From: Candidatus Micrarchaeota archaeon
GTDB lineage: Archaea; Micrarchaeota; Micrarchaeia; Micrarchaeales; CABMGC01
Length of the DNA stretch: 37,576 nt
NCBI GenBank assembly: GCA_027314465.1
Contig: DAHVAU010000004.1
Location: 1-37,576, forward strand
Reading direction: 5' to 3'
The position numbers and the translations under genes are program-made. Below the pieces are notes generated by a model, which was not told the origin of the DNA, did no database searches, and saw only the letters and a list, made by a program, of their open reading frames with translations. Positions within the stretch are counted from its first letter, which is position 1. The number at the start of each line of letters is the position of its first letter. Below are positions 13,099 through 33,598 of this stretch, piece after piece.

Positions 13099-15546
13099 TT
13101 ATACCTTGATCTGCTCAAGGTCCCCGGCGTCGACGAGCTTCACATTCCCGTATCTTATGGCGAGCTTGATAATCTCTGCGTTGTTCCCGTATGACCTGTA
13201 CAGCTTGTCCATGAAGCTTAGCTTCTTCTCCTGGTCAAGGAACACTATGTAGCTCCTGGAGCGCTGGCTTATCTCTATGTCCTTTATCTTGGCAGTGTCT
13301 GAATAGATCTTGATGTAGCTCTGCGTGCCCTTGTTGGTTATTATCATATCGCTCTTAGAGGATGCGTCCATCTCAGTGAACATCATTGCGTTTGCTATGC
13401 AGTAGTCCCTGAGCTTGCGGTATATGACCAGGTAATCTATGCTGTGGCCCGACTGCGCCGCCCATGCCGAAGGCGCATAGTAGTCTCCTGCAGATTCAAC
13501 AAGCCCCTTCTTTATGAGCACATTGAGCAGCGCATAGGTATTTCTCAGCGTTATTGATATGCGCGTGTTCCCGTACTTTATGAAGTTGCTTACCCCCGAG
13601 CGCATCTCCTCAGGGGTGAGCGGCATGAACCTCCAGTGGTAGAATGAATTGACCTTGTCGAACACCGCCACCACTGCGTCAGGGGACTCCATAGCCCTCT
13701 CATGCGTGCTCATCTTTATCTCTGGAACATCTACGAAGTACTGCTCTACGTTGTTAGGCACCAGCACCCTGTTAAGCACTATTATGAACACGAGCGCTAT
13801 TGCAAAGGCTATGTACAGCGGAGGTATGTTCAGACCTGCGCCCTGATACTGGTAGGGCACGTAATAGTTGCTGCCCAGTATCATTATCTCGAATGTGCCG
13901 TTGCCGTGGCTTAGAGCAGCGCCGTTAGGCAGTGAGTACCTGATGTCTCCGCCGGTTATGGTGCCCTGCGAAGCGTATGCCCCACTCACGCTGGCAGTAT
14001 ATGCAGTGCCTGATATTGGCACGCCGTTGCTGTATGCAGTGAACAGGAAGGTGCCGTTATTGAAATTAAGCACTACAGGAGCTATTGTGGCATTTGCTAC
14101 CTGGAACAGTGCTGATGAATATGTCCTGTTCTGCTGGTCGTCCAGCCTGGCTATGTAGTAGCCGCTTGGCAGCTCGAAGGACTGGTATGAGTAGAGCGTA
14201 GATGCCCCCACCTGCCCTATCCTTATTGGGGCCTGCGGCGCAGGCGTGAAGTTCATATCCACAAGGGGCACGTAGGCTATGACAGCGCTGCCGTGCGTTG
14301 AATTGAATACCTGCGTGCTTATCTGGGCCTGCTGCGAGAGGCCGACGACTGGAGGGAGCCCTATCTCTCCGTTCTGCTTCATCCTGATCCTGAACTCTGA
14401 CTCGAACTTGCTTGTGGTGTTGGCATTTGACAGGTTGAGGAATACTAGCGAGTACGAGCTATTTATTATGTCCGACACGCTCGGAGAGTAAGGTATCAGG
14501 GTGTTGAGCGTGAATATCGTGTAGTTGCCCGATGACGACTGCGGCAGAGGCGTGAAGCCGTGAGCTATGAACGGGATCCAGTACCTTGACGCAAGAACGG
14601 TGGCTATGTCTGACGAGAGGTTCAGGGCGCTGTTGTTCCACCCCGCCGAGGGATAGTTGCTCAGGGCTATGAACGTACCGTTGAGCACTGATACAGAAGT
14701 TGCAGAGCCGAACGAGAGGCCAGGCACGAACCTGAACGTGGGCGTGTTTAGTATGAGCCTGTTGTACGTGTAGTTGGAGTTGCTCGTATTGGCGAATCCC
14801 GTGCTGTTGTAGTAGCTCATGTACGGCATCTTCAGCGCTTCTGCAGTAGCATTGCTGTTCTGCGCTATCTGCCCGGTGCATGAGACTGACCTTGACAGAT
14901 TCCTGCCTACGTACAGCACGACATCGCCATTGGAGAGCAGATTTGGCAGTGTTGTGTTTGAGTACCTCTGGCAGCCCTCAGTGTAGGTTACATTAGGGAG
15001 CAGTATGTTGGGCATAAGCCCTGAAGCTATTATGACTATGGATCTCTTGGGTATGGCGTCCATCTGATTTATGTTGATGTAATTGAGGCTCGATGCGTTG
15101 AACAGCAGGCCTGAGTGCGACAGCGTGCTGTTGAGAGTGCTGAACAGCGTTGAGGGGAGGAAGCATTGCACGCAGTAGCTCTCCACGTTTATGACGTATA
15201 TTGGCATCACCGGCTTTGATGTGTACACCGTGAGAGACAGGTTAGCCGCGGCGACATTGTTGCTTGTGTATGCAACACGGGCATACTCCACGAGCTGGTT
15301 CGAGTAGTTGTACGTAAGCGCTCCGTAGTAGTCTGTTGTGAGACCCCCATATATCGGCCCGGATGCGGCCGGAGGCGCGACCTGTATGGCAGCAACTTGC
15401 TGCCCCACGTAGAGCACAAGCAAGGCCATTAGCACTACTGCCACAAGCACTGCAACTATCGCTAGCTTTATCTTTCCGCTCATGCCACTGGCGCTGGGTT
15501 CAGGAGCCATTTCCTGCAGCGCTGACTTGGATGCTCCTACTGTCAT
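13099..15546 (-). CDS. large type-I-like surface glycoprotein candidate: N-terminal anchor/signal, ~520-aa sequon-dense ectodomain, second TM, 216-aa cytoplasmic domain
   Basis: 815-aa ORF. The ATG overlaps the stop of the upstream 49-aa ORF (ATGA).
- First TM: KLAIVAVLVAVVLMALLVLYV.
- Ectodomain: about 24 N-x-S/T sequons by my count (NYS, NLS, NST, NAS, NVT, NTT, NAT, NGT and others).
- Second TM: PPLYIAFAIALVFIIVLNRVLV.
- C-terminal domain: contains a wHTH-like stretch, TLRNTYALLNVLIKKGLVES. Confidence 0.8.
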   Translation of the reverse strand: MTVGASKSALQEMAPEPSASGMSGKIKLAIVAVLVAVVLMALLVLYVGQQVAAIQVAPPAASGPIYGGLTTDYYGALTYNYSNQLVEYARVAYTSNNVAAANLSLTVYTSKPVMPIYVINVESYCVQCFLPSTLFSTLNSTLSHSGLLFNASSLNYININQMDAIPKRSIVIIASGLMPNILLPNVTYTEGCQRYSNTTLPNLLSNGDVVLYVGRNLSRSVSCTGQIAQNSNATAEALKMPYMSYYNSTGFANTSNSNYTYNRLILNTPTFRFVPGLSFGSATSVSVLNGTFIALSNYPSAGWNNSALNLSSDIATVLASRYWIPFIAHGFTPLPQSSSGNYTIFTLNTLIPYSPSVSDIINSSYSLVFLNLSNANTTSKFESEFRIRMKQNGEIGLPPVVGLSQQAQISTQVFNSTHGSAVIAYVPLVDMNFTPAPQAPIRIGQVGASTLYSYQSFELPSGYYIARLDDQQNRTYSSALFQVANATIAPVVLNFNNGTFLFTAYSNGVPISGTAYTASVSGAYASQGTITGGDIRYSLPNGAALSHGNGTFEIMILGSNYYVPYQYQGAGLNIPPLYIAFAIALVFIIVLNRVLVPNNVEQYFVDVPEIKMSTHERAMESPDAVVAVFDKVNSFYHWRFMPLTPEEMRSGVSNFIKYGNTRISITLRNTYALLNVLIKKGLVESAGDYYAPSAWAAQSGHSIDYLVIYRKLRDYCIANAMMFTEMDASSKSDMIITNKGTQSYIKIYSDTAKIKDIEISQRSRSYIVFLDQEKKLSFMDKLYRSYGNNAEIIKLAIRYGNVKLVDAGDLEQIKV

Positions 15547-15692
15547 CTCCCTTCAGCCTCGCCGCCCTTCTTCACAACGTATTTCTGCAGCAGAGACTCT
15601 ACCAGCTTAGAGAATGCGTTCTGGTTTCCTGAGGGCTTCTTCTTTATCGCGTATATCCTTACGTAACTGAACTTCCTGTTTATAGTAGCCAT
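15543..15692 (-). CDS. unannotated 49-aa basic protein (below ORF-track cutoff)
   Basis: Hand translation of the minus strand gives MATINRKFSYVRIYAIKKKPSGNQNAFSKLVESLLQKYVVKKGGEAEGR. It fills the only gap between the 253-aa and 815-aa genes. Its TGA overlaps the ATG of the 815-aa gene (ATGA), which suggests translational coupling. Confidence 0.45.
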   Translation of the reverse strand: MATINRKFSYVRIYAIKKKPSGNQNAFSKLVESLLQKYVVKKGGEAEGR

Positions 15693-15710
15693 GTATGCCA
15701 TTCAAAGCAC

Positions 15711-16472
15711 CTATCCCTTGAGCTCCAGGTATCCCAGTGATACCATCTTATCCAGTATCTGCTCCACCCTTGTTGGAGACACGCCGTGGGACTTGGAGAA
15801 CTCAACTATGTCTATGGAGCTGTTGTGAACGGTTATCCAGTCCTCCACCAGTGCCATGAGCGACTCGTCGCTGTATTTCTGCAGCGATGCAAGCTGGCCT
15901 TTGAGCACCTTGTTCTCTTCCGAGAGCTGCGCTGACTGTATCGTAAGATTCCTGTTTGCAGCAGATACCTCTATCTCAAGCCTCTTTGTCTCCCTGTATT
16001 CGGATAGCAGCGAGTCGTACCTGTTGTACAGTGTGGTGTAGTTCTGCGAGAGGCCTGATAGAAGCCCGTCAAGCACGGAGTCTATGTACTGTATGAACTT
16101 GAGCTGGTCCAGAGAGTACTTGCCGTCAAGAATCGAGACTATGGCGGCTACGCTCTTAAGCACGCTTGCGCGCCGCAGGCTGACGCTGGAATCCGGTATG
16201 ATTGAATATGTGATATCGATGCCGTCGGGCTTTATGCTTATTATGTGGAATAGGTACGGCCTGCGGTTTATGCTCCTGCTCTCCACCTTTATCAGGTCCA
16301 GCCCGGAGTCTGATGACTTGAACAGATAGAACGGCAGGCTCCCCAGTGCCGCCTTAACATCGCCCATTGTGCCATTGAGCTTGCCTGATATCGAGAACTC
16401 CTCAACCTTTGGCTGCGAGACCTGCTGCGATGGGCTGGCGTTCTGTGATGCTGGATCCGGAGCATTAGCCAC
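15711..16472 (-). CDS. cytoplasmic coiled-coil protein with C-terminal winged-helix domain
   Basis: 253-aa ORF with an apparent GTG start. The central heptad region is LLSEYRETKRLEIEVSAANRNLTIQSAQLSEENKVLKGQLASLQ. The C-terminus, IDIVEFSKSHGVSPTRVEQILDKMVSLGYLELKG, is wHTH-like. Confidence 0.7.
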   Translation of the reverse strand: MANAPDPASQNASPSQQVSQPKVEEFSISGKLNGTMGDVKAALGSLPFYLFKSSDSGLDLIKVESRSINRRPYLFHIISIKPDGIDITYSIIPDSSVSLRRASVLKSVAAIVSILDGKYSLDQLKFIQYIDSVLDGLLSGLSQNYTTLYNRYDSLLSEYRETKRLEIEVSAANRNLTIQSAQLSEENKVLKGQLASLQKYSDESLMALVEDWITVHNSSIDIVEFSKSHGVSPTRVEQILDKMVSLGYLELKG

Positions 16473-16486: not shown

Positions 16487-16876
16487 CTATTCATGCTGGC
16501 CATTTTTATAGCCTTTCTTTGTTCCGTGCCTTGGTATCTCCAGCGCAGGAGTGTAATTCAGCAGGGACATTAGGTACATGATCAGGAGCACCACCGCAGC
16601 TATGAGGAACGTTGATATTGAAGGGGCCATGAACAGGCTCAGAATCATGAATATTACTCCAAGCGCAACGTACATTATCTGCCTTGAAGTGTACTTGTCC
16701 CTCCTCTTCCTGTACTGGGCATAGCATGCCCTGCACACCACGAGCCTGCTGCCCTTCTCGTTCTTTGTGACATTTCTCTTGAACAGCCTTATGGCGTCTA
16801 TGATATGGTCGTTGGCGACAGGAAGTCCGTCCCTCCTCTTCCCGCACATTATGCAGTAGCTTGGTTTCGCTGGCAT
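16487..16876 (-). CDS. zinc-ribbon protein with two C-terminal TM helices
   Basis: 129-aa ORF with an ATG start. The zinc ribbon is CIMC...35 residues...CRAC. It is followed by a basic linker (YRKRRDKYTSR) and two hydrophobic helices (IMYVALGVIFMILSLFM and FLIAAVVLLIMYLMSLL). Confidence 0.7.
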   Translation of the reverse strand: MPAKPSYCIMCGKRRDGLPVANDHIIDAIRLFKRNVTKNEKGSRLVVCRACYAQYRKRRDKYTSRQIMYVALGVIFMILSLFMAPSISTFLIAAVVLLIMYLMSLLNYTPALEIPRHGTKKGYKNGQHE

Positions 16877-16880: not shown

Positions 16881-17186
16881 TCATTCTATTGTAAGCTCCA
16901 CTATCTTTCCGAAGGTGTTCTTTATCCTTTCCTCTTCAAACGCATCCATCACGTTTGAGACGGATACATCGTCTATGCCTATCCTTCGCAGTATGTTTAT
17001 GACATCGCTCTGATGAAGGCCGGTCCTAAGCAGCATGTCCGTGAACATGAGCACGTTGACGTGGCTGTGCATCTTGTCCAGCTGGCCCACTATCTGCTCT
17101 ATGTTCTTCTCCCCGACCTTGAAGCTGGCCAGTAGCTTCTTGAATTCCAGCTTGCTTATCCCCAGCGATCCTGCCAATTCTATCAC
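16881..17186 (-). CDS. small helical protein homologous to the C-terminal module of the upstream ATPase
   Basis: 101-aa ORF whose GTG start overlaps the ATPase stop (GTGA). FKKLLASFKV..IEQIVGQLDKMHSHVNVLMFTDMLLRTGLHQSDVINILRRIGIDDVSVSNVMDAF aligns with the ATPase residues FEKLLLTSKF..IIDAVFKQLDARTRLVDLKEFVKILISERMTKEAIVSLLRAIGISDNIISRAF. Confidence 0.65.
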   Translation of the reverse strand: MIELAGSLGISKLEFKKLLASFKVGEKNIEQIVGQLDKMHSHVNVLMFTDMLLRTGLHQSDVINILRRIGIDDVSVSNVMDAFEEERIKNTFGKIVELTIE

Positions 17187-18688
17187 TCACTATATACAAA
17201 AGCCCTGCTTATTATGTTGTCCGATATGCCTATGGCCCTGAGCAGGGACACTATGGCCTCCTTGGTCATCCTCTCGCTGATCAGTATCTTGACGAACTCC
17301 TTGAGGTCCACGAGCCTTGTCCTTGCATCGAGCTGCTTGAACACTGCATCTATTATATCGTTGTTTATGCTGCTCTCTATGAACTTCGACGTGAGCAGCA
17401 GCTTCTCGAACGAGTACTCCTTTTGCAGGGTCTGGTCCCTGTTCTCCGATTCCGAGAGCAGGTCTGCCAGCGTTATTGTGTACACATCAAGAGGCACCTC
17501 TCCAACAACCCTGTTGAGTATGAACGTTGATGGGAACTGCGCAGAGGTCTGAAACGACATGTCTATTGCGGCTTCGCCAACCCCAAGCTTGCTTATCTCC
17601 GACCTTATGAACGGAGAGAAGTTGAGCGACCCTTGTATGTAGTCCATGAACTTCTGGAACTTTATCCTGAGTATTATGTTGGTGCCTACGTTTGAGAATA
17701 TGGCCTCGTTGATATCCGTTGGGTTCTGCGAAGCGACTATTAGGCCGAACTGGTACTTCCTTCCCTCCCTTACTATCGTGATCGCATCGCTCCTGTCATC
17801 GCTGGCCACCTTCCACGCCTCGTCCAGCACTATTATTGCCTTGAGGCCCTTTACTGCGCTCCATCCCTCGGATCTCATCTTCTCCTTGAGCGTCTGGAGC
17901 ATGAACAGCGCAGCAAGCGCCCTGAACCTCTCGTCAGGCAGGCCCGACAGATCGAGGTCCACGAGCCCTGATGATATGAGCTTGTCGAGATCTATGGTGC
18001 TCTTCCTGGCGAAGTAGTCCTCGCCCTCCCTTGAGAACTGCCTGAGCCTGTATATCGCATTCTCGAGCTCCGCAGGATACTCGTAGGTGCCTTCCTGGAG
18101 CTTCTCCTCCAGCAGCTTTGCAACGTCCTTGAGCGTCGGCGCAGGCCTGTTGCCAGTAGGCAGGCTTGAGAGTATGAAGCCTGCATTGAGGTACGCCTGC
18201 TCCACGGCCTCCGCCGTGAGCCTTCGCTGCTCAGGGAACCCGGTTATGTCGGTGAGTATGTCAAGCGAGTTCATTATCTGCTTTGACCTGTCTATCGGCT
18301 TCATGCCAGCAAGGTCCATCAGGTTTATGTAGTCGCCCTTTGCCAGCGATATTATGGTGCCGCCGCTCTGCTTGACCCAGCCCCTGTACTCCCCGGCCCA
18401 GTCTATTATTATGGCGTTAGTCCCCCACACGTAGCTTGCGCGCGTCAGGAACGTCTTTACGAAGAAGCTCTTTCCTGACCCTGTTATTCCCACCACAGAT
18501 ATATGCGGGTTTGTGAGGTTGTTGAACGTCCAGGTGAACGGCACGCCGAACCTCTTTGTTATGCCCACGAATATTGAATCCGTGGGGTCGTTGAGCAGGA
18601 ACTCTGGCGGCGGCTCTGGAGGCCTTGATAGGAAGGTTCTCTTGGCCAGTTCGTTGCTCATCAGTTTTTGCATCTTTATTAGTCCCAT
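17183..18688 (-). CDS. VirB4/TraC/CedB-like ATPase of the HerA-FtsK superfamily (DUF87/AAA_10-type), short form lacking a VirB4 N-terminal domain
   Basis: - Walker A: VVGITGSGKSFFVKT (nt ~18467-18490).
- NAIIIDWAGEY and INLMD.
- Walker B: AIIVLDEAWK.
- Arg-finger/sensor block: REGRKYQFGLIVASQNPTD.
The gene is embedded in a membrane-protein operon. I took ATG 18688 as the start; a TTG at 18709 (the ORF-track start) would overlap the upstream gene. Confidence 0.85.
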   Translation of the reverse strand: MGLIKMQKLMSNELAKRTFLSRPPEPPPEFLLNDPTDSIFVGITKRFGVPFTWTFNNLTNPHISVVGITGSGKSFFVKTFLTRASYVWGTNAIIIDWAGEYRGWVKQSGGTIISLAKGDYINLMDLAGMKPIDRSKQIMNSLDILTDITGFPEQRRLTAEAVEQAYLNAGFILSSLPTGNRPAPTLKDVAKLLEEKLQEGTYEYPAELENAIYRLRQFSREGEDYFARKSTIDLDKLISSGLVDLDLSGLPDERFRALAALFMLQTLKEKMRSEGWSAVKGLKAIIVLDEAWKVASDDRSDAITIVREGRKYQFGLIVASQNPTDINEAIFSNVGTNIILRIKFQKFMDYIQGSLNFSPFIRSEISKLGVGEAAIDMSFQTSAQFPSTFILNRVVGEVPLDVYTITLADLLSESENRDQTLQKEYSFEKLLLTSKFIESSINNDIIDAVFKQLDARTRLVDLKEFVKILISERMTKEAIVSLLRAIGISDNIISRAFVYSE

Positions 18689-18692
18689 ATGA

Positions 18693-19514
18693 TCACTTCT
18701 GTTGGTCAAACTCCGAAGACAGCTCGCCGATGCTAGGTACCCTGTAATTGAAGTTGTGCACCAGGTACATCTCCCTGCCCATTATGCGGGCTATGCTCAG
18801 GTCGAATATGTTGAATACCGTGGAGAGCTCGTTGAGCTGGTTTGTGAGCCTGTCCATCGCCTCTTTCTGGCTCACGCCTACCGCAGTACTCTCTATATAC
18901 ATTATGCTGTTGACCGGTCTTTCCCCTTCACCTATCCTGTCTATCCTTGCCTGTATCACATTTATCTGCCTCTGTATTGTCTCAAGGCCCATTGGATTGG
19001 GGTTGCTTCCCTGTGTCTCCTTAGAGTACTGGAACTCCAGAAGGCCGCGTTTGGCCTCAAGCTCCTCCCTGTAGTGCTGCACCTCCTCGGCAACGGCCAC
19101 TATGTTGAACTTGAACGGGAAGTGTATGTTCATTATGGCCTTCTCCCACTTGTCAGGCGCAGCTGCCAGGGCCATGTCCTCTTCCTGCACCTGCTCCTGC
19201 GCGAATATGTAGTTGTAGATGTTTGCTGTTAGGTATCCTGTCGCATAGTATATGCCGTTGGAGTACTTTATTATTGCATCCTGGCTCTTTGGTATTATGT
19301 AGCCCTTTGAAGGCACTATGACTATATTGAGCAGCTTTGTGAATGCGGGGAATATCAGGAAGTCTGCGAAGGCTATGAGCAGTATGAGGCCCAGGGAGAC
19401 GAACCCGAAGACAACTATTATTAGCCCGACTACGCCGTACTTGACACCGTTGACTATTACTAGCAGAACTACCAGCACTGAGAGGGCTATGTGTATTATC
19501 GTCTTCTCGTCCAT
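18693..19514 (-). CDS. membrane-anchored protein (N-terminal TM hairpin plus ~190-aa soluble domain), paralog of the 19519-20346 product
   Basis: 273-aa ORF with an ATG start. The TM region is IHIALSVLVVLLVIV...VVGLIIVVFGFVSLGLILLIAF. With the upstream gene it shares the blocks SNGIYYATGYL, FPFKFNIV and GVSQKEAMDRLTNQLNEL, and the ending RVPSIGEL. Confidence 0.75.
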   Translation of the reverse strand: MDEKTIIHIALSVLVVLLVIVNGVKYGVVGLIIVVFGFVSLGLILLIAFADFLIFPAFTKLLNIVIVPSKGYIIPKSQDAIIKYSNGIYYATGYLTANIYNYIFAQEQVQEEDMALAAAPDKWEKAIMNIHFPFKFNIVAVAEEVQHYREELEAKRGLLEFQYSKETQGSNPNPMGLETIQRQINVIQARIDRIGEGERPVNSIMYIESTAVGVSQKEAMDRLTNQLNELSTVFNIFDLSIARIMGREMYLVHNFNYRVPSIGELSSEFDQQK

Positions 19515-19518
19515 CCCA

Positions 19519-20346
19519 TCACATCATGTTCTGCGTCTGCTGGTTCTGCGAGTACCTCATGAGCTCGCTTATGGTCGTAGGCGGTATCATGTATTCAGGC
19601 TCCACCAGCACAAGCATGTCCGCCCCAGTTACCACTGATGCGCTCACCCCCACAGTTGCACTTATTCCTGCTGCAACCTCATCGGCCTTGAGCGATATCA
19701 TGTTCATCGCCTCTTCCTCTGTGCCTCCGAATACGGTGACTGCCGCATACACATCAAGGGCCTGCGAGTTTGCCTTTGAGACGCTGTCAAGCAGGTTGTG
19801 CCACATCGTCACCTCCCCCTTTATCCTGTCGAGCTGGGGCTTGCTGGCGTTCTTGTCAAGTTGTATGGCGTTGTACCTGGCCTCGGCCTCGTTTAGCCTG
19901 GAAGTCACCCTGGCTATGTAATCGTCTTTGTTTATGGAGTAGAGCTGCGAGGTCACCTTTATCGGGGTCTTGCTTATGCTTACCATCCTTGAGAACACAT
20001 TGGAGAAGTTGAACTTCTGTTCGTCATTCATCTCGGTGGACGAACTGTACACAGGCACCTTGATGAATGATGTCGCGTATATGAGGTTGTCCTTCCTTAC
20101 CAGTATCGCGTTGCCGTTCTGCGACATGTAGAAGGCATCGTCTGGATCTAGCACCACGCTGCCGCTCTTGGATCGCAGCACAGGCGCATACAGGTAGTAG
20201 TAGTACCTGGTCGCGAATGCCAGCACAGCGGCAATAAGCGCTATGATGGCTAAGAGTAGAGCCACCGGGCTCAGGCTGGCTGGAGGCAACCCAGTAAGCG
20301 TTGCAAAAACGAAACCAACCGCAGCGATGACAATGAAGATTACCAT
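19519..20346 (-). CDS. membrane-anchored protein (N-terminal TM hairpin plus ~200-aa soluble domain), paralog of the 18693-19514 product
   Basis: ATG 20346 (MVIFIVIAAVGF...); the ORF-track TTG is at 20367. There are two TM helices. The shared blocks are QNGNAILVRKDNLIYATSFI, TPIKVTSQL and GGTEEEAMNMISLKADEV, ending in MIPPTTISEL. Confidence 0.75.
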   Translation of the reverse strand: MVIFIVIAAVGFVFATLTGLPPASLSPVALLLAIIALIAAVLAFATRYYYYLYAPVLRSKSGSVVLDPDDAFYMSQNGNAILVRKDNLIYATSFIKVPVYSSSTEMNDEQKFNFSNVFSRMVSISKTPIKVTSQLYSINKDDYIARVTSRLNEAEARYNAIQLDKNASKPQLDRIKGEVTMWHNLLDSVSKANSQALDVYAAVTVFGGTEEEAMNMISLKADEVAAGISATVGVSASVVTGADMLVLVEPEYMIPPTTISELMRYSQNQQTQNMM

Positions 20347-20377
20347 TTCTTGATTGCTGCTGGGCAACTGACCACTG

Positions 20378-25117: not shown

Positions 25118-25118
25118 A

Positions 25119-26300: not shown

Positions 26301-26310
26301 CTAATCCAAC

Positions 26311-27948
26311 TCATATGAACCTGCTCAGCCCTATGATGGTGGTCTCTCCCCCCATCAGCGAAGAGATCCCCACCATTGCCGATATCATCATCAATACGTT
26401 TATTATAGGAATTATGAACGCCGACACCGCTATAATTCCATACATATTTGCCAGGGCACTAAGCGCCGCGGCTATGTTGTACGGGCCTATCCTGGCCACG
26501 CATGCGCCATTGTTTGCAGTAAGCAGGCCCAGAGGCGACGACAGCGGAGATATTCCGGTGAAGAACGACAGTATGAAAGTTACCGGCAGTGATATCTCCT
26601 GCACTAGAGTCTGCGCAAGCGCCTCTGACTCAAAAGGCCATATCGTAGTGGCGCCAGCCTGGATGTTACATGAGTACAGATTGATAACGTCGCCTGCGTA
26701 TGGATACACGTAGAAGTTTATGTTGCGCTTCACGTAGCATGTAGCCGCAGTGCTGAATGGATTCCCCCCGCTGATGAAAGGCTGCTCGCCCTGCGATACG
26801 CTTGAGCACGCATTTAGAGTGGTGGCAGTTCCTTTTGCAGGGGTCAGACCCTTAAGTATGTAGCTGGTCTTGAGCGAATCGGCGCTAGTGTAGCAGTACA
26901 GCACGTTGTTACCAGCGCTGTTCGCAAGCTGCCCGAAGCCGCACAGCGATACTGCAGGTATGGAGCTTGCCCCTATGAACGAGTTGGGGTTGAGGTTGCT
27001 GAGCGATGAATATTCGAAGAGGAACACCGTAGGGTATATCACTACAGCGACCACTGTCGCTGCAATCAGTAGTCCCCCTATTCTCCTCGTGAAGGGTATG
27101 GTGCGCAGCACTATTCCTCCTGCAAGCAGGTACGGCCATCCCATAAGCACTATCAGGATGAGCACCATCTGTATGACGAACATATACAGGGCTATTGTGC
27201 CCTCAGTGGTTATGGCAGGCATTATCGCCCTCTGCAGCACGTAGCCGCCGTAGGGATTATATGAGAGCTTCAGTGTGGGCACAACGTCAGGAACCGGGAG
27301 GTCGCACTCCGCAGGTATGCACACAACTATGAAAGGCCGCAGGTTCCTGAGAAAGAACAGCAGGCTGTCGAAGTTGTACAGCGAGTTCAGCTCCATTGCC
27401 GACTGATTGCTCATGTTTGCGAACACAACGTACGTAGAGGCGAGTCCGTAGTCAATCTGCCTTGTGACTGGAGTGACTCCTGCATTGCTGTCTATCAGGT
27501 ACTTGCATACGGCAGTGGTAGGCCCTGGCAGGTTCTGGGCGTTGTCCTGGTATACGCTATTGAAAGTGCTTATCTGCGAGTTCGGAAGTATGTTGTTGCA
27601 TATATTGTTTATCTGTGATGTGCCCCCGCTTCCAAGTATGCTGGAGAAGCTTATGCTGGAGCTTGTGCCTATGAGAAAGAAGAACCATACTAGCAGCACT
27701 ACGATGAGTATGCTTGCGCCGGCGTGCTGCAGCTCCGATATGGCGCTGGCCTTCACCCTGTTATTGTTTAGGAGCCACCCTATCATATAGTATATCGAGG
27801 CCAACAGCACGGCCAGTGTGGAGGCTATGATTATGACAGGTATCCAGTTGTTGAATACATTATAGTTCGTGGCTATGCTCGACTGCGCGCCTGCGGCTGA
27901 TGAGAGGACCAACGCAGCTGCAATTGCGAATGCTATCGTAAGTCTCAT
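26311..27948 (-). CDS. polytopic membrane protein, paralog 3 (largest, with an expanded Cys-rich external region)
   Basis: 545-aa ORF whose ATG overlaps the upstream stop (ATGA). It has a signal-like N-terminus (LTIAFAIAAALVLSSAAGAQS). The family signature is GIVLRTIPFTRRIGGLLIAATVVAVVIYP. There are many Cys residues in predicted loops. Confidence 0.8.
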   Translation of the reverse strand: MRLTIAFAIAAALVLSSAAGAQSSIATNYNVFNNWIPVIIIASTLAVLLASIYYMIGWLLNNNRVKASAISELQHAGASILIVVLLVWFFFLIGTSSSISFSSILGSGGTSQINNICNNILPNSQISTFNSVYQDNAQNLPGPTTAVCKYLIDSNAGVTPVTRQIDYGLASTYVVFANMSNQSAMELNSLYNFDSLLFFLRNLRPFIVVCIPAECDLPVPDVVPTLKLSYNPYGGYVLQRAIMPAITTEGTIALYMFVIQMVLILIVLMGWPYLLAGGIVLRTIPFTRRIGGLLIAATVVAVVIYPTVFLFEYSSLSNLNPNSFIGASSIPAVSLCGFGQLANSAGNNVLYCYTSADSLKTSYILKGLTPAKGTATTLNACSSVSQGEQPFISGGNPFSTAATCYVKRNINFYVYPYAGDVINLYSCNIQAGATTIWPFESEALAQTLVQEISLPVTFILSFFTGISPLSSPLGLLTANNGACVARIGPYNIAAALSALANMYGIIAVSAFIIPIINVLMMISAMVGISSLMGGETTIIGLSRFI

Positions 27949-29171
27949 ACGTTACCCCAGAATGGCCCCACGGCCATCATCCTGTTTACCGAATTCAGTC
28001 CCTTGGTAAGCCCTTGCGCAAAGGCCAGCACTATTGCAAGGTCAATGCCTATCATAACTATGCCCTCGAAAAGGTACTCCGCAGTCTTTATTCCAAAGTC
28101 TATGGTTACCCCTGGCACATTGAACAAAGTACTGAACATCAGGGTTATTCCTTGCGAAAGCCCTCCTTCTGAAGAGAACGCCCCTGAGAGGAATGACGTG
28201 GTCAGCGGTATGCCGCTAAGTAGGCCGCTCCCGGTGTTGAAGCTCTGCGGCTGCGAGTTGAAGAAGTTGCTTGCCGGAGAGGCCCCAAGCTGGTAGGGGA
28301 ACGTGTACTGGTTGTATGGGTTGCACACCTGCCCTGCAACAGTGCACGGAGTGTTTATCCACGTTACAACGTAGGTATTGAACAGTATGGCAAGAGGCAG
28401 TATGAAGTAGAATCCTATGGCAAGGGCTAGGAATGTGTCTGACGACTCTCTGAGCTTGGGCCCGGCGAAAGGTATTGAGCGCATTGCTATGGCTACTGGG
28501 ACTACAATAGTCAGCGCAGTAGTCTGTATTAATGAGAGCAGCAGGTACACAACGAATATCACTCCGAAAGACACGATTATTAAGGGCGTGAAGGCCGCCA
28601 CCAGAGCGCCGCTGAATCCGTAGTATATGGTGAACAGTTCGGTACCAAGCTCCACGTGCAGGAAAGCAGAGAGATATGTATTCACTATCTCATCTACAGC
28701 GGAGCCGAGGTTTCCTGCTATTGTTATGAGTACCGATTCTGAGTATATCTGCTGGAATAGCGACAGCCCTTTTGAGAACATCAGATTGCCAAGGTAGAGC
28801 TGCGCAAACTGCATCGGGTCCTGGTATGTGGCATGCAGCACAGGAGCCGCAGATGCAGTAAGAGATGAGCCTACCTGACATGTTGTCGCTGCTATTGCGA
28901 TGAGTATTATGACTATGATTATGGCTATGACGCCCTGGAAGGCCTCGTACTTCGCCGCGCCCTTCATCTTCTCGCGCATGGAAACAGGAAATATGTTGGC
29001 GAACGAGTATACCGCTGCGGATATCATGAACGATGCAAGTACGATAAGCAGGTTTATCTGGATCCAGGAATTTGTGTTGAGCGTGCCGCTAGCCCCGGTG
29101 GTGCCACCGAAAGTGCAGGCCTGCAGGTAGGGATTCTGCGCAGCAGCAAGTACCATTGGTAGGATGTTCAT
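27945..29171 (-). CDS. polytopic membrane protein, paralog 2 of the tandem family
   Basis: 408-aa ORF whose ATG shares 1 nt with the upstream stop (TGATG). It carries a divergent form of the signature, AIAMRSIPFAGPKLRESSDTFLALAIGFYFILP. Confidence 0.8.
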   Translation of the reverse strand: MNILPMVLAAAQNPYLQACTFGGTTGASGTLNTNSWIQINLLIVLASFMISAAVYSFANIFPVSMREKMKGAAKYEAFQGVIAIIIVIILIAIAATTCQVGSSLTASAAPVLHATYQDPMQFAQLYLGNLMFSKGLSLFQQIYSESVLITIAGNLGSAVDEIVNTYLSAFLHVELGTELFTIYYGFSGALVAAFTPLIIVSFGVIFVVYLLLSLIQTTALTIVVPVAIAMRSIPFAGPKLRESSDTFLALAIGFYFILPLAILFNTYVVTWINTPCTVAGQVCNPYNQYTFPYQLGASPASNFFNSQPQSFNTGSGLLSGIPLTTSFLSGAFSSEGGLSQGITLMFSTLFNVPGVTIDFGIKTAEYLFEGIVMIGIDLAIVLAFAQGLTKGLNSVNRMMAVGPFWGNV

Positions 29172-30445
29172 CAGCTCGCCAACCTCAGTTTGCCTCCCAG
29201 AGAGAGCTTTATGCTTCCCCCAAATACCCTAGCTATGTTGTCAACTATCGGATAGATTATGATTATGTCGATAGCAAGCAGTAGGAGCTGCACGATCAGA
29301 TATAGCCCGTACTGCAGTATCTGGTTCATGTAGTGGTAGATGGCCTTGGTGCTGAATACTGCAGAAGATGACCCTATGGAATCCGCGACATTGCCTATTG
29401 TGCCTATTGCAGAGTTTATAAGGGCACATCCGGTTCCAAGCACTGTAGTCACAACTGTGCCAAATACCCCTCCACCTATGGTAGGGCATGTGAGCGGACC
29501 TGATACAACTGCAGAGGGCTGCTGCAGCGGAAGGGCGCTGTCAAGAGCCTGCGTGACGGGATAATTGAACAGCACAAGCACTGCAGGGAACACCACGGCC
29601 ATTGCAACACCTATGGCAAGCAGCGTGCCGCCTATTCCCCTTACGAACGGAAGGGCGCGGAACACCAGGCCTATTGGTATGAAGAACGCCAAACCTATGT
29701 AAGCGAGTGCAGGAAGCAGCGTTATGACGCCTATCTCCATGGACGTGTATGGAAACATTATGAAGTTTGAGAGGTCGTTGATTATTGAACCGAAGAATGC
29801 GATGTGGAAGTTTCCTGTCTGCAGGGCCCAATTGCCGAATGGGAGGAACAGGACGCCGAAGTTTATCCCGATTGCAATGGTTGTGAGAAGATCCGTAGGG
29901 GATGGGACATAGAAGCTGACCTGGAGCGTTGACCAGAACCCTGTGCCAGAGGCCATCTGCCCCAAAAGGCCCCATATGTTCACAACGTTTGCATTTACGC
30001 TGCATAGATACCCCTCTGCGCCGTTTATAAGGTAACCCAGGTTTGCTACGCCAGGAGCTCCAGCCCCAACCGTCTGCGGACTTGGAGATATTGCATTGGC
30101 CAGGTTGCCGATGAATATTATGATCGCATAGATGCTAATTATTATCAGCGCCGACTTGCCTATCTCCCAGTACTCCCCCTGCAGCCAGTTCCTGATGCCC
30201 AGATGCGGGAAGAGCCTGCTTATCATGTACCCTATTGCGACTACGTCAAAAGATATAGTAAGGGCCAGGAGCGCCATGGCAACGGCATTGAAGTAGTTGA
30301 AAGACACTGGAGCTATGGTAGGACTGGCATTGCACTCGGCAGGAACAGGTATTGTTGGAGTGGGAGGTATGCCTGTAGCAGCATATGACATACTAATAAG
30401 AAGGCACAGTAGGACACTGACCGATGCTACCGCTCGCAGCCGCAT
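29171..30445 (-). CDS. polytopic membrane protein, paralog 1 of the tandem family
   Basis: 424-aa ORF with an ATG start and a signal-like N-terminus (AVASVSVLLCLLISMSYAATG). The family signature is GLVFRALPFVRGIGGTLLAIGVAMAVVFP. Confidence 0.8.
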   Translation of the reverse strand: MRLRAVASVSVLLCLLISMSYAATGIPPTPTIPVPAECNASPTIAPVSFNYFNAVAMALLALTISFDVVAIGYMISRLFPHLGIRNWLQGEYWEIGKSALIIISIYAIIIFIGNLANAISPSPQTVGAGAPGVANLGYLINGAEGYLCSVNANVVNIWGLLGQMASGTGFWSTLQVSFYVPSPTDLLTTIAIGINFGVLFLPFGNWALQTGNFHIAFFGSIINDLSNFIMFPYTSMEIGVITLLPALAYIGLAFFIPIGLVFRALPFVRGIGGTLLAIGVAMAVVFPAVLVLFNYPVTQALDSALPLQQPSAVVSGPLTCPTIGGGVFGTVVTTVLGTGCALINSAIGTIGNVADSIGSSSAVFSTKAIYHYMNQILQYGLYLIVQLLLLAIDIIIIYPIVDNIARVFGGSIKLSLGGKLRLAS

Positions 30446-30466: not shown

Positions 30467-30476
30467 CTTAAAAAGG
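30467..30476 (-). promoter_or_regulatory. TATA/box-A candidate in front of the six-paralog block
   Basis: The minus strand reads AAACCTTTTTAAGCCC. The element lies 22-31 nt upstream of ATG 30445, inside the only sizeable gap (116 nt) in this part of the cluster. Confidence 0.4.
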
Positions 30477-30561
30477 TTTACAGACGCAGCTTGAACATGA
30501 TTAATGGAATTGGGTGCTTAGTTGCCCGATGGGCAGCTATGCAACTGGCAGGCATGTGAAT

Positions 30562-31299
30562 TCAGTGCCTAAGCAACCTGAACCTGTCCATGTACGCCTG
30601 AGCCTGGAAGATGACGAAATACGGAACTACGAGCAGGGAGTTTATGATCAGCGCTATGTACCTTGACCAGAGGGTGCCGAACAAGCCTATGCACGCCACA
30701 TCCACAAGAGACACTATGACTGTAGCAAGCACAAGCCATATGATGAAGTACTGCGGCTCGTGGAGCACAAGCCTCAGGCTGTCAACAACCGCCCGTGACG
30801 CCTTCTTGTTGTCTACAACTATTGCGCTGGGAGCATAGAATATCACAAGGAAGAGCACAAAACCAACGACGGCTGTTAGCAGCGTCGATATCCCAAGTGC
30901 ATACCCAACCATGCTAGCTACCATGAGTATCAGAGTGTATACAAGCAGGACGGCGAACACCTTCCATATGTACTTCTCAAGATCCTCGAATACCCTCTTG
31001 CCAACTGACGAGTGAGTCCTCTTTGACTTGACCAGCAGGCTTATCAGCACAAAGGCGAAGCTTAGGAACAGAAGGGAGAATATAGTCGATGCTGTGATCA
31101 CTGCAAGGCTCACCAGGTCTATGTTCCCGTTCGCGAATATGCTTGCGCTCCTAAGGAATATGGCTCCGGCGCTTATGTAGGTTGGAAGCGGGGCGAGCAA
31201 TGGTATCGCGAAGGCTATCACGAATGGTATGGAGAATATTATGGCTAGGCCTATCCTCTCCCTGTAGACATTCCAGGATTCCCTTATCACACCTGCCAA
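30562..31299 (-). CDS. six-TM integral membrane protein, unknown function
   Basis: 245-aa ORF with no ATG near its 5' end (TTG 31299 or GTG 31290). It has six evenly spaced hydrophobic helices and no recognisable catalytic motif. Confidence 0.65.
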   Translation of the reverse strand: MAGVIRESWNVYRERIGLAIIFSIPFVIAFAIPLLAPLPTYISAGAIFLRSASIFANGNIDLVSLAVITASTIFSLLFLSFAFVLISLLVKSKRTHSSVGKRVFEDLEKYIWKVFAVLLVYTLILMVASMVGYALGISTLLTAVVGFVLFLVIFYAPSAIVVDNKKASRAVVDSLRLVLHEPQYFIIWLVLATVIVSLVDVACIGLFGTLWSRYIALIINSLLVVPYFVIFQAQAYMDRFRLLRH

Positions 31300-31342
31300 C
31301 CGGACACCGGATTGCTATCTCAAAGAACTATTAAAAAGGTGA

Positions 31343-33208
31343 CTATCTTGCAGGAGGAGCAGTGACAGTAAATGAAGGCCCCACATAGTAATGGCCGCTG
31401 TTGTAGATCACGGTGTTGAGATAGGCAGTACCGGCAGTTATGTTGGATGGTATGGTTGCATTCAGGGCATAAATGCCGTTTGACAGGTGCATCAGGTTGG
31501 GATTCGTGGCGCATGGATAGGCTGCGCAGTTCAGGCTGCCTTTGAATAATCGCTGTGCAGAAAGGCCGTAGAAGAGCCCTCCCTGACCCTGGTACTCTAT
31601 CATGAATGCGAGGTATGCACTGGTACCTGGACCGCCATACAGCACGTCTGCACGGTACAGCACTGTGCCATTATTCTGAAGCTCTGCGGTCTGGTTGTAC
31701 AGATGTATGCTGAACCCGCTTTCATAAGAAGCATGGGAGAGAGCTACAACAGCAACTATGGCCGCTATTACAACGAGCGTAGCTACGTAGGCAGCGGCCT
31801 TGCCTGCGGCCGTATTAACGTACGATCTGAACCGCCCTATTGGCCTGTGTCCAGAGTCAATGCGGCATACCAGCGTAAAGAGGAGGGCCAGCAGTATGTA
31901 GTACACCAAGAGCAGATGGTTAATGAACAGCAGAGGTATCATTGCAAGTAATGGTATTGCCCTCCTGTCGTTGGCATAGAGCGATACGATCACCATCAGC
32001 GCCGTAGACAGGGCGATAAGTATGGGATACGAATGCATGCCTATTGGATACTGCGAGGCTATTAGGTAGCCTATGGAGGACGATGGCTGTGGCAGTATGT
32101 TGCCAACAGTAAGTAACACTGATGATATGTAGCTGTATGGTGCGCTAATGATGAAATACCCATTTATCAGCATGAAGATGGCCCCTGCCCCAACAATCTC
32201 GCGTATGCCGCTTCTCCAGCCCTTGTTGTTTATGGTATAGACTATGAACAGCAGCATTATTGGCCAGAGCAGCTCCTGCAGCGATACTGCAAGTCCAATT
32301 ATAAGCCACGAGTACTTCTTGCTAGCTGCAGTGTAGAGAAGCAGCACCAAGGCAAGCATCAGAAATGTCTGCATTGATGCAATGAACATTGAGAATGCAC
32401 CGAACAGCACGTAAGCTGCGAAATTAGGTCTGAAGGGCTCGTCTTTTTTCATCACCAGAGCGAGTGCACCTATAAAGATCAGGAAGAATACAACCGCCTG
32501 GGTATGCATGTACAACTGGGCTATCGCCTGGAAGCCATACCCGCTGAACGCAAGATAGAACGGCACTGACACGAGGAAGTATAGGGCAGGATAATCAACG
32601 GCGCCTATCACAGTGTTGTCCTGGGTGAATGTTATCCTCCCGGTAGTGACATTTGATGTGAACAGAGTCTGGCTTATGGAAGTGGTGTATGGATTTATGC
32701 CCTGCAGCATGTGCTGCACTGCGTAGTATCCTATTACTGTCTCGTCATCAGCAGCGTAAATCACGTAGTGGAGATAGAATACCACCACTATGGCGATGAT
32801 GGCTATTGCAAGCGCTGCCTTAATCCTCCTGTCCTTTATGAACAGCGCGGCGCTGAGCGTCAGGGCCAGTACCATGAAAATGCATGCATAAGCAAACGCA
32901 TCTTCAAGCCATGATAGCCAATATGCAGTCAACTGACCCGTTGATAGGTAAAGAAATGAGGATACTGCAAATAGTACCAGTGATACTAGGAAAAGTACGT
33001 TGAACAGCCGCTTTCCAGCGCGGTCCGTTGCATGCGCAGCGTTCAATACTGCCAGAGCCACCACTACAGCGGCAAACGCAGCGTCGACCAGAGCCCCTGA
33101 CCAGAGATATTTCACTGGCCCGGCTATGGATGCAATAATAAATAAAACGAGGGCGATGAGGAGCCTGGCAGTCCTGTCAGGAACCTGCCGGCCCCTTCGC
33201 TCTCGCAT
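31343..33208 (-). CDS. large polytopic membrane protein with C-terminal external domain; GT-C-fold (PimE/DUF2029-like) glycosyltransferase candidate
   Basis: 621-aa ORF with an ATG start and about 13 TM segments. The loop AADDETVIGYYAVQHMLQGINPYT....AVDYPALYFL resembles the acidic-loop / G-x-N-P-Y / Y-P-P arrangement of DUF2029/GT87-type GT-C enzymes. The C-terminal ~130 aa are soluble and carry sequons (NQT, NGT, NAT, NIT). Confidence 0.7.
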   Translation of the reverse strand: MRERRGRQVPDRTARLLIALVLFIIASIAGPVKYLWSGALVDAAFAAVVVALAVLNAAHATDRAGKRLFNVLFLVSLVLFAVSSFLYLSTGQLTAYWLSWLEDAFAYACIFMVLALTLSAALFIKDRRIKAALAIAIIAIVVVFYLHYVIYAADDETVIGYYAVQHMLQGINPYTTSISQTLFTSNVTTGRITFTQDNTVIGAVDYPALYFLVSVPFYLAFSGYGFQAIAQLYMHTQAVVFFLIFIGALALVMKKDEPFRPNFAAYVLFGAFSMFIASMQTFLMLALVLLLYTAASKKYSWLIIGLAVSLQELLWPIMLLFIVYTINNKGWRSGIREIVGAGAIFMLINGYFIISAPYSYISSVLLTVGNILPQPSSSIGYLIASQYPIGMHSYPILIALSTALMVIVSLYANDRRAIPLLAMIPLLFINHLLLVYYILLALLFTLVCRIDSGHRPIGRFRSYVNTAAGKAAAYVATLVVIAAIVAVVALSHASYESGFSIHLYNQTAELQNNGTVLYRADVLYGGPGTSAYLAFMIEYQGQGGLFYGLSAQRLFKGSLNCAAYPCATNPNLMHLSNGIYALNATIPSNITAGTAYLNTVIYNSGHYYVGPSFTVTAPPAR

Positions 33209-33235
33209 GAAATCTCGGCGCTGCCGTCAGCGGAT

Positions 33236-33598
33236 TTAGGCGCAGTTTGTGGTAGTGCTAAGTCCACCAGAGGTTGCTATGAGGCTTATGACTCCAGGGG
33301 CGATTATCACTATTATTAGGCCCACTATTCCTCCGACTATCATTCCAAGAGACCAGCCCTGTAGGTTGCCTCTGAGGTTTCCAGCCGCAGGCAGCATGTG
33401 CGCTATTGCGTACATTACGCCTCCTAGTATGAACAATACTAGTGAGATTATTCCCACTACTGTCCTTACAGTAGTTATTATATTACATAGCGAGCTGCTC
33501 ACTGCCGTTGAGGCAGCAGCTGCATTCACGAGCGAAACAACGCTCATTACGCTTACCATTGCCATTACGACAAGGTACAGTCTATTCAGCAATGCCAT
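33236..33598 (-). CDS. VirB2/TrbC/CedA1-like conjugative-type pilin candidate
   Basis: 120-aa ORF, first gene of the cluster.
- Long signal peptide MALLNRLYLVVMAMVSVMSVVSLVNAAAA, followed by S.
- Hydrophobic helix 1: LCNIITTVRTVVGIISLVLFILGGVMYAIAHML.
- Short basic loop: PAAGNLRGNLQG.
- Hydrophobic helix 2: WSLGMIVGGIVGLIIVIIAPGVISLIA.
- Short tail: TSGGLSTTTNCA. Confidence 0.7.
   Translation of the reverse strand: MALLNRLYLVVMAMVSVMSVVSLVNAAAASTAVSSSLCNIITTVRTVVGIISLVLFILGGVMYAIAHMLPAAGNLRGNLQGWSLGMIVGGIVGLIIVIIAPGVISLIATSGGLSTTTNCA

Follow-up and report, generated by a model that had tools for sequence, protein, structure and literature searches.

A conserved Micrarchaeota gene array that probably derives from Ced/Ted-like conjugation machinery

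This study concerns a stretch of DNA of 37,576 nucleotides from a Candidatus Micrarchaeota archaeon (positions 1 to 37,576 of contig DAHVAU010000004.1, assembly GCA_027314465.1; hereafter, the window) and, within it, an array of 18 open reading frames (ORFs) that all lie on the minus strand and run unbroken from position 33598 down to 13099. We refer to these genes as g1 to g17 in the order in which they are read, with a small additional gene, g16b, between g16 and g17. Our main finding is that the array is probably a chromosomally fixed, vertically inherited, and greatly expanded derivative of conjugation-type machinery—a type IV secretion system (T4SS)—of the same minimal kind as Ced and Ted, the DNA-exchange systems of Sulfolobales/Desulfurococcales and Thermoproteales, respectively (van Wolferen 2016; Beltran 2023, PMC9905601; PMC11868833), and that it is specific to Micrarchaeota. 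A sequence-only reading of the window had proposed an undescribed lineage of archaeal transfer apparatus, T4SS- and Ced/Ted-like but of unusual composition. The evidence from the pilin, the ATPase, and the adaptor proteins presented below supports that proposal, and we found no published description of the system.

Results

That the array is a real, conserved core locus of Micrarchaeota is virtually certain. More than 100 close relatives of the ATPase g13 (70–87% identity) were found, and nearly all the labeled ones are assigned to Candidatus Micrarchaeota, Micrarchaeia, or Micrarchaeaceae; labeled relatives of g9 and g12 are likewise nearly all from Micrarchaeota. Scanning one genome per species with an alignment of the g9 family returned 80 loci out of 106 matches, practically all titled Micrarchaeota (a few are evidently mis-binned) and including the complete chromosome of the cultured Ca. 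Micrarchaeum sp. A_DKE and a metagenome-assembled genome of Ca. Mancarchaeum. When the window proteins were mapped onto 83 related loci, a comparison of gene neighborhoods that the sequence-only reading had suggested, the order g1-(g2)-g3-g4-g5-g6-g7-g8-g9-(g10)-g11-g12-g13-g14-g15-g16-g16b-g17, followed by top6B on the opposite strand, was conserved in essentially all loci long enough to display it, and the array lies tail to tail with top6B in about 80 Micrarchaeota species. Each of the paralogous genes g4 to g9 keeps its own 1:1 positional ortholog in every related genome, which dates the six-fold duplication to before these genomes diversified. The ATPase g13 shows the strongest conservation by a wide margin (63–87% identity across Micrarchaeota); the paralogs are 25–66% identical. 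Since g2 and g10 are frequently absent, moved, or inverted among the related loci, we regard them as accessories, and the array minus these two genes defines a conserved core of 16 genes. The locus is a vertically inherited core feature of the chromosome of these DPANN symbionts.

This pattern bears on two readings in which the array would be foreign DNA. An integrated conjugative element or plasmid remnant would be in keeping with the fact that some ATPase relatives lie in integrated elements, one of them in a module beside a tyrosine integrase (locus L084, see below), and with the islands containing "likely conjugative elements" reported for Micrarchaeota strain Mia14 (PMC5498576). However, the array occupies the same chromosomal place beside top6B in about 80 species with 1:1 core orthologs, its ATPase is conserved across the group like a housekeeping gene, and G+C content is even across the array boundaries. 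Furthermore, the tests of the window ORFs turned up no relaxase, integrase, replication gene, VirD4, or capsid family, in agreement with the sequence-only reading, which had noted that a VirD4-type coupling ATPase, a relaxase, and integrase, replication, and capsid genes were missing from the window. We therefore consider mobile DNA very improbable and effectively refuted. Less probable still is a virus-derived module, consisting of a packaging ATPase with membrane proteins of the virion or of egress. The FtsK-HerA superfamily does include viral packaging ATPases, and B204 of Sulfolobus turreted icosahedral virus was recovered in a profile search with g13 (E = 1e-3), but viral ATPases are far weaker matches to this profile than VirB4 or HerA, no capsid or other virion gene occurs in the window or in the 83 related loci, and a structural model of g9 has no significant match among the viral predicted structures of BFVD. 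Homologous arrays always lie among housekeeping genes, not beside virion genes, and because of this synteny the virus-derived reading is effectively refuted; the recurrence of the same order, place, and 1:1 orthologs in about 80 species excludes a mobile element and a virus alike.

We begin with the ATPase of the array. The gene g13 (17183..18709, minus strand) encodes a P-loop ATPase of the FtsK-HerA superfamily with a C-terminal helical domain, at most 508 amino acids (aa) long, the true start probably being Met8 (18688) or Met13 (18673). It matches the Pfam families DUF87 (57 bits), P-loop_TraG (49.5 bits; cut-off 25.8), and AAA_10 (46.7 bits; cut-off 27.5), all above threshold, which bears out its earlier description as a VirB4/HerA/DUF87-type ATPase. 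Over the whole domain, the best NCBIfam matches are CedD, F-type TraC, CD1110 VirB4-like proteins, CedB, and a mycoplasma VirB4 family, whereas the HerA models of NCBIfam match just the C-terminal half of the domain (residues 247–382; 55–58 bits against cut-offs of 800–970). When a g13 family profile with distant relatives included is compared with PDB, the C-terminal domain of VirB4 (4ag5) ranks first, with 100.6 bits in a single co-linear stretch over profile positions 59–375. On sequence grounds g13 is a distinct family within the VirB4/HerA assemblage, a placement that is not decisive alone.

The second line of evidence comes from the nearest relatives of g13 outside its own family, which an exhaustive HMMER search identified as proteins of ~870–913 aa with ~33% identity, encoded in modules with CedA1/CedA genes. 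The sequence-only reading had held that a robust grouping with HerA repair helicases or viral packaging ATPases would tell against its proposal; g13 does not group with the viral packaging enzymes, its best co-linear match is VirB4, and its closest outside relatives are Ced-like. The genes before these longer, fused ATPases encode an 84–90-aa protein and a ~293-aa protein, both with Pfam CedA1 matches, and a ~65-aa transmembrane protein. The N-terminus of the ~293-aa protein is homologous to the 84–90-aa protein (96%), and the order pilin, channel protein, ATPase is common to these Ced-like modules and the Micrarchaeota array. The modules show the CedA1/CedA/CedB gene arrangement described for Ced, and a channel protein whose first hairpin is pilin-like has been reported for CedA/CedA1 and VirB6/VirB2 (PMC9905601). 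The extra 285 N-terminal residues of the fused ATPases comprise two transmembrane helices and a domain homologous to the g11 family (hhalign 97.1%, E = 7e-11), the match of this module to g12 being weaker, and the start of g13 coincides with the proline-rich linker that follows the module.

In the array, g11 and g12 (18693..20367, minus strand; 282 and 273 aa) are paralogs (hhalign 97%), each with two N-terminal transmembrane helices and a cytoplasmic alpha/beta domain, and neither has a match to Pfam CagE_TrbE_VirB or any other usable Pfam, NCBIfam, or PDB sequence match. The VirB4 N-terminal domain is not within the g13 polypeptide; separate g11/g12 genes are found instead. Because g11 is homologous to the N-terminal module of the fused ATPases, g11 and g12 together with g13 would constitute a split version of an architecture with transmembrane, N-terminal, and ATPase parts, and the two adaptors are best read as split-off N-terminal modules of a CedB/VirB4-type ATPase, which refines their earlier description as duplicated anchor proteins. 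A split VirB4-type N-terminal module had been predicted for g11/g12 ahead of the fold search with g12, in which the only geometrically good matches of the g12 model (predicted local distance difference test score [pLDDT] 79) are R388 TrwK/VirB4 chains (probability 0.95, TM-score 0.40 over 273 residues, root-mean-square deviation 5.6 Å, 184 columns). CedB and CedD are themselves built of transmembrane, VirB4 N-terminal-domain-like, and ATPase parts, as is the case for VirB3-VirB4 (PMC11868833). In a distant lineage (L111), just one g11/g12-like gene lies ahead of that for the ATPase. Directly after g13, the 101-aa product of g14 (16881..17186, minus strand) corresponds to a stand-alone copy of the ATPase C-terminal helical domain, matching g13 residues 429–506 (hhalign 97.2%).

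The fused ATPases have features of their own. Their C-terminal ~250 aa (L084 10001-12586, L085 10001-12742, and L086-L103) resemble, by eye, a winged helix followed by a PD-(D/E)xK-type nuclease motif, 'H.Y.V...DLV.D..IA.EVE', and hhalign comparisons of this C-terminal domain with g14, g16, and g17 were negative. In L084, a tyrosine integrase (12797-14221) lies beside the fused-ATPase module, which is probably an integrated conjugative element of an archaeon.

The third line of evidence is the first gene of the array, g1 (33236..33598, minus strand), whose 120-aa product had been put forward as a VirB2/TrbC-like pilin candidate. In the ortholog alignment, a signal peptide of considerable length, Ala-rich around its apparent cleavage region, precedes two hydrophobic helices that are connected by a short basic loop. 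Cys38 is near-invariant and the C-terminal Cys119 invariant, so that one conserved cysteine lies close to the start of the mature protein and the other at its last part. The window protein itself matches Pfam TrbC at E = 1.9e-4 with 22 bits, under the curated cut-off of 27.9, but 14 of 33 orthologs match Pfam TrbC/VirB2 (best E = 9.7e-7, with profile positions 8–97 of 98 aligned), which upholds the candidate. Four of the 33 match T4SS_pilin, and no competing family recurs. There is no Pilin_N match, and the long signal peptide is of the type I kind, not that of a class III type IV pilin. Moreover, there is a weak likeness between g1 and the first helical hairpin of g4 to g9 (hhalign 81% to g5, 70% to the pooled profile). 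It is tempting to speculate that a Cys38-Cys119 disulfide could mimic the head-to-tail cyclization of T-pilin and VirB2/TrbC pilins. In five loci (L022, L068, L069, L071, and L072), the array starts with two tandem copies of g1.

The most conspicuous feature of the array is the run of six polytopic membrane proteins encoded by g4 to g9 (22923..30445, minus strand; 424, 408, 545, 393, 365, and 366 aa), which the sequence-only reading had placed, by position and topology, in the class of VirB6/TrbL/CedA. Comparisons of profiles built from ortholog alignments show that all six are mutually homologous (pairwise hhalign 96–99.5%), and they share a near-invariant hairpin motif, R..R..GG..A...P (R242, R248, G251, G252, A256, and P266 in g9 numbering), which resembles the best-conserved stretch of CedA-like proteins. 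Against an alignment of 16 CedA-like sequences gathered from 25 metagenomic loci, the pooled six-paralog profile gives hhalign 88.3% (E = 2.9e-6) over the conserved hairpin, a stretch of 74 hydrophobic columns in which composition bias is possible. No signal was seen by hhalign when single paralog families, or g1, were compared with single CedA-like or CedA1-like sequences. A confident model of g9 (pLDDT 89.5, pTM 0.80) shows six very long helices of 34–55 residues; since it has no significant PDB or BFVD neighbor, a VirB6 fold is not confirmed for the paralogs. A phage "TrbL" protein at rank 9 for this model (E = 0.34) was not counted as evidence. The count of six paralogs was upheld, and the proposed class is backed by a local profile match to CedA-like proteins, but not by Pfam TrbL/VirB6 membership or by the fold; homology of g4 to g9 to CedA/VirB6-type channel proteins is likely, although unproven.

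Two further observations concern these paralogs. On one archaeal contig (L112), a 377-aa homolog of g9/g4 adjoins a PA14 surface protein and a related ATPase. Single paralogs are markedly enlarged in some genomes, g9 to 529–582 aa in the A_DKE clade (L050, L056 [A_DKE], L057, L064, L065, and L083) and g8 to 841–843 aa in two genomes (L068 and L075); these lineage-specific size jumps suggest inserted extracellular domains.

Several of our results weigh against a T4SS origin, and they need to be set beside the reading that they would favor, namely, a membrane complex unrelated to T4SS with a HerA-like ATPase—for example, for assembly of the envelope or surface layer (S-layer), for division, or for DNA segregation—in which the likeness to pilins and CedA would be a hydrophobic artifact. 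All NCBIfam scores of g13 are far under the family cut-offs (CedD 77.7 bits against 600; CedB 56 against 700), and HerA and DptH structures score close behind VirB4 for its profile. The match between the g12 model and VirB4 has a Foldseek E-value of 0.38, the aligned part of VirB4 not being visible. The pilin match in the window is below threshold, as mentioned above, and g1 has no detectable similarity to CedA1-like pilins (hhalign 0.1%). As for the paralogs, 0 of 96 sequences match Pfam TrbL/VirB6 (PF04610) at E ≤ 1, their family profile has no match among PDB sequences, NCBIfam likewise offered nothing usable, single paralog families reach just 7–15% by hhalign against the CedA-like family, and a Foldseek search of PDB with the g9 model returned nothing under E = 0.05 and no VirB6 chain, R388 included, in the top 50. 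Finally, g16 has weak coiled-coil matches to the division proteins ZapB and MreC, and the locus contains no DNA-processing gene. Nevertheless, independent links converge on T4SS/Ced: TrbC matches in 14 of 33 orthologs of g1, fusion relatives of the ATPase in CedA1/CedA modules, and the superposition of g12 on VirB4. In addition, HerA matches are confined to the C-terminal half of the ATPase domain, and no NurA or HerA-specific partner lies nearby, family searches having found no NurA, Mre11, or Rad50 among the locus ORFs. We consider an unrelated complex improbable and derivation of the array from Ced-like/T4SS machinery probable.

The remaining array proteins are less readily assigned. The 621-aa product of g2 (31343..33208, minus strand) is a polytopic membrane protein with a C-terminal extracellular domain, and its residues D155 and E156 are invariant. 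Many genomes lack this gene or carry another in its place, A_DKE being one of the numerous loci without it. It has no Pfam, NCBIfam, or PDB sequence match, and the label of a GT-C-like enzyme given to it previously was abandoned, as no such signature is detectable. The conserved polytopic membrane protein g3 (30562..31299, minus strand; 245 aa) occurs in nearly all loci with 36–71% identity and has no Pfam or NCBIfam family match and no usable PDB sequence match. The accessory g10 (20436..22871, minus strand; 811 aa) is membrane anchored and very basic (120 Lys and Arg residues) with LRV repeats (Pfam LRV, 35 bits). The window and the equivalent positions in L012, L028, L040, L045, L046, L054, L055, L063, L066, and L080 show that its gene moves within the locus, where it may separate g9 from g11, lie upstream of g4, or be inverted; most genomes lack it. 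Downstream of the ATPase, g15 (16487..16876, minus strand; 129 aa) is a zinc-ribbon protein with a C-terminal transmembrane hairpin (residues 64–112), its family having weak zinc-ribbon and HNH_5 matches that follow the Cys pattern. It is followed by g16 (15711..16472, minus strand; 253 aa), a cytoplasmic coiled coil with a C-terminal winged-helix domain, for which matches to the ZapB coiled coil and to EAP30, PCI, and HTH_Cmi2_C winged helices were found in 10–19 orthologs; a g16-like gene also follows the ATPase in the distant lineage L111 (hhalign 99%). The small basic protein g16b (15543..15701, minus strand; 52 aa) is conserved, with orthologs of 48–58 aa at the equivalent position in most loci.

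The last gene, g17 (13099..15546, minus strand), encodes an 815-aa bitopic surface protein that is always the last before top6B and is 25–58% identical across loci. It has an N-terminal transmembrane or signal segment, an extracellular part of ~500 aa with 24 N-x-S/T sequons, a second transmembrane segment, and a cytoplasmic domain of 215 aa, and it has no Pfam or NCBIfam family match and no usable PDB sequence match. This architecture fits the giant glycoprotein recognized earlier, glycosylation being predicted from the sequons. We ruled out that g17 is the S-layer protein of Micrarchaeota, because the latter has an S-layer domain and is encoded elsewhere in the genome (bioRxiv 10.1101/2021.04.28.441871), as is the case for A_DKE, where it is another gene.

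As to layout, the sequence-only reading had described 17 co-directional genes, 12 of them for membrane proteins. The shared direction and tight packing hold, as do the junctions it listed, with 4-nt overlaps at 15543/15546, 24020/24023, 27945/27948, and 17183/17186 and a 1-nt overlap at 29171. The number of genes is, however, 18, because the ATGA overlap at 15543/15546 requires the ORF at 15543-15701 (g16b), which is kept in related genomes, and hydropathy gives transmembrane segments in 14 of the 18 products, so that most are indeed membrane proteins but not 12. The components it had named—six paralogs, a duplicated pair, an LRV protein, a zinc-ribbon transmembrane protein, and a DUF87 ATPase—are all present. 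A TATA-like box (CTTTTTAA or TTTATATA) lies 22–38 nt upstream of the start codon in every gap of at least 43 nt, that is, before g1, g3, g4, g10, and g11 (33599-33645, 31300-31342, 30446-30561, 22872-22922, and 20368-20435, minus strand). The promoter-like region of g1 (33599..33645, minus strand), whose function is predicted from sequence, has an TATATAAA box ~31–38 nt upstream of the ATG. Because such boxes occupy all gaps of this size, the array probably consists of four to five transcription units, not a single operon, and their recurrence would imply several promoters with short or absent leaders. A scan for bacterial-type promoters and terminators is uninformative for an archaeon.

The flanks agree with the earlier placement of the array between housekeeping genes, on the top6B side, and a FlaI/PilB-like locus. 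On one side lie genes for CDC48, S6e, aIF2-gamma, and top6B; on the other, divergent and possibly associated, lie genes for a 390-aa coiled-coil protein and a FlaI/T2SSE-family ATPase (34076..36824, plus strand). The latter has a Pfam T2SSE match and NCBIfam matches to FlaI (247 bits), TadA (177), and VirB11 (133), all under cut-offs, and the same pair adjoins the array in L011, L019, L032, L039, L041, and L043. The pair could serve as a type IV pilus partner in the way that Ups does for Ced, or could have a VirB11-like role. An 89-aa basic ORF (33699-33968, plus strand) in the intergenic space that separates g1 from the divergent coiled-coil gene has no family match and could be a small regulator. 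Between top6B and g17, a 385-aa ORF (11918-13075, plus strand) with about seven 'KHL(R/H/K)'-type repeats in its N-terminal half and one transmembrane segment has no family match and no counterpart among the 83 related loci.

Discussion

The data show directly which genes are present, how they are paralogous, that their order is conserved, and how pilin, ATPase, and adaptors are linked by homology. How many copies of each protein build the channel, whether a pilus forms, and what is transported in which direction are inferred in the working model that follows. A hexameric VirB4/CedB-type ATPase, g13, would sit at the cytoplasmic face of the membrane, tethered to it by the paralogous adaptors g11 and g12, which would correspond to the fused transmembrane and N-terminal-domain module of Ced-like ATPases. 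One copy each of g4 to g9 would form a membrane channel and an extracellular helical stalk. The two-helix pilin g1, which bears a signal peptide, would be extracted from the membrane and polymerized into a conjugative-type tube through the S-layer. The products of g14 to g17—a copy of the helical domain, a zinc-ribbon transmembrane protein, a coiled-coil winged-helix protein, a small basic protein, and a glycosylated surface protein—would act as system-specific accessories, and g2 and g10 would be dispensable additions. Such a machine would use ATP to drive DNA or another macromolecule through the envelope, between symbiont and host or between symbionts.

The nature of the substrate is the most tentative part of this model. 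The closest characterized systems, by analogy, and the cytoplasmic winged-helix, zinc-ribbon, and basic proteins of the array suggest DNA, yet we put the case for a DNA-moving machine at somewhat less than even. Nearly as plausible, although on balance unlikely, is that the same machine moves proteins, lipids, or metabolites at the host contact, as an effector or "feeding" apparatus comparable to what has been proposed for Patescibacteria T4SS and for nanohaloarchaeal SPEARE/VirB4-like proteins. Micrarchaeota are host dependent and lack nucleotide, amino acid, and lipid biosynthesis (PMC11329633, PMC5498576), nanohaloarchaeal VirB4-like ATPases are linked to giant surface proteins (PMC10266531), the locus includes the large glycosylated surface protein g17, and its ORFs include no DNA-processing enzymes, all of which would suit such an apparatus. 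On the other hand, the closest characterized relatives, Ced and Ted, move DNA (PMC9905601, PMC11868833), and g16, g15, g16b, and g10, with their winged-helix, zinc-ribbon, or very basic character, would suit the handling of nucleic acids.

With either cargo, a Ced/Ted-like derivative in Micrarchaeota would address how DPANN archaea acquire nucleotides, lipids, and other building blocks from their hosts, and the array is a strong candidate for material exchange between Micrarchaeota and hosts. That the locus is specifically a host-contact organelle is doubtful. Equally doubtful is a more detailed version, a T4SS-derived, symbiont-side conduit for the uptake of host DNA or other macromolecules. 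Its channel would be a pseudo-six-fold hetero-oligomer of the six different CedA/VirB6-like proteins, matching the hexamer of the ATPase. Cryo-electron tomography of ARM-1, a cultured Micrarchaeota relative, has revealed intercellular tubes and a 21-nm barrel-shaped complex in the symbiont envelope, whose proteins have not been identified (PMC11329633). The array is an obvious candidate for structures of this type, and a conduit between Micrarchaeota and host could correspond to the barrel-shaped docking complex or to the filamentous connections observed in pairs of Micrarchaeota/Microcaldota with their hosts. The 16 core genes, present lineage-wide and in the cultured A_DKE, provide a concrete list of candidates with predicted roles, and the apparently split VirB4/CedB architecture may clarify how the N-terminal domain works. 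The literature on Micrarchaeota or DPANN with VirB4, T4SS, or conjugation yielded no description of the locus, a coverage that is incomplete and an absence that is not proof; the locus is apparently an undescribed, distinct, and much-expanded DPANN lineage of T4SS-derived, Ced/Ted-like systems.

Comparison with Ced and Ted highlights important similarities and differences. Like them, the array is chromosomal and probably a "domesticated" minimal T4SS that combines a VirB2-like pilin, candidate CedA/VirB6-like polytopic proteins, and an ATPase of the VirB4/HerA clade. Outer-membrane parts are missing, as are relaxase and coupling protein, the absence of which from Ced and Ted has been described (PMC9905601). 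As in those systems, the ATPase is probably tied to a transmembrane and VirB4 N-terminal-domain-like module, and the pilin shows some likeness to the N-terminal hairpin of the putative channel proteins. A cleavable pilin signal peptide is shared with Ted (TedC), and paralogous extra components with Ced (CedD and CedE). Unlike Ced and Ted, the Micrarchaeota array has 16 core genes instead of 3–6, six candidate channel paralogs in fixed order, an ATPase apparently split into two adaptor genes and a catalytic gene with an extra copy of the C-terminal domain, and the additional conserved genes g3, g15, g16, g16b, and g17. Its pilin is TrbC-like by Pfam and not detectably CedA1-like, and g13 is not a CedB or CedD equivalog (56 and 78 bits). 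The lineage that carries it consists of mesophilic or acidophilic DPANN symbionts instead of hyperthermophilic crenarchaea, and it has no HerA, Rad50, or ParA neighbors. The idea of domesticated conjugation machinery is thereby extended from hyperthermophilic Crenarchaeota to DPANN.

The Ced-like modules at L084-L110, each with a CedA1-family pilin, a CedA-like protein of ~293 aa, a ~65-aa transmembrane protein, and a fused ATPase of ~870–913 aa, contain the closest relatives of g13 outside its family, share with the array the g11-homologous N-terminal module, probably the hairpin motif of g4 to g9, and the gene order, and differ from it in having four genes, one channel protein, a fused ATPase with a different C-terminal domain, and a pilin that is not detectably g1-like. 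Some adjoin an integrase, so these are probably mobile. The array shares a DUF87/HerA-type P-loop domain with HerA-NurA and HerA-based defense systems, but its ATPase lies amid 14 membrane proteins with no NurA, Sir2, or DUF4297 partner. It likewise differs from type IV pili and the archaellum, as its ATPase belongs to the FtsK-HerA superfamily and the FlaI-like ATPase is only a divergent neighbor.

Finally, there are parallels in bacteria. The Rvh T4SS of Rickettsiales is also a vertically inherited chromosomal T4SS in a genome-reduced obligate symbiont or parasite, and Rickettsia has five tandem VirB6 genes and duplicated VirB4 and VirB8 (PMC2653234). Unlike the Micrarchaeota array, Rvh is bacterial and diderm, with a full VirB7-B11/VirD4 set and clear Pfam TrbL/VirB6 domains unrelated in sequence to g4 to g9; the likeness is an analogy of evolutionary pattern, and we claim no membership. 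Patescibacteria (candidate phyla radiation) T4SS, of MPF-FATA ancestry, are near-universal and relaxase-less in ultra-small episymbionts, with VirB2-like pilins near virB4, and a role in the epibiotic lifestyle has been proposed (PMC12102498; PMC10633639). They differ in being bacterial, with a canonical VirB4 N-terminal domain and monoderm conjugation-type parts, and a six-fold channel expansion has not been reported for them. The array thus offers an archaeal parallel to both the proliferation of VirB6 in Rickettsiales and the relaxase-less T4SS of Patescibacteria, which suggests that genome-reduced symbionts of both domains have repeatedly recruited and elaborated a T4SS machine.

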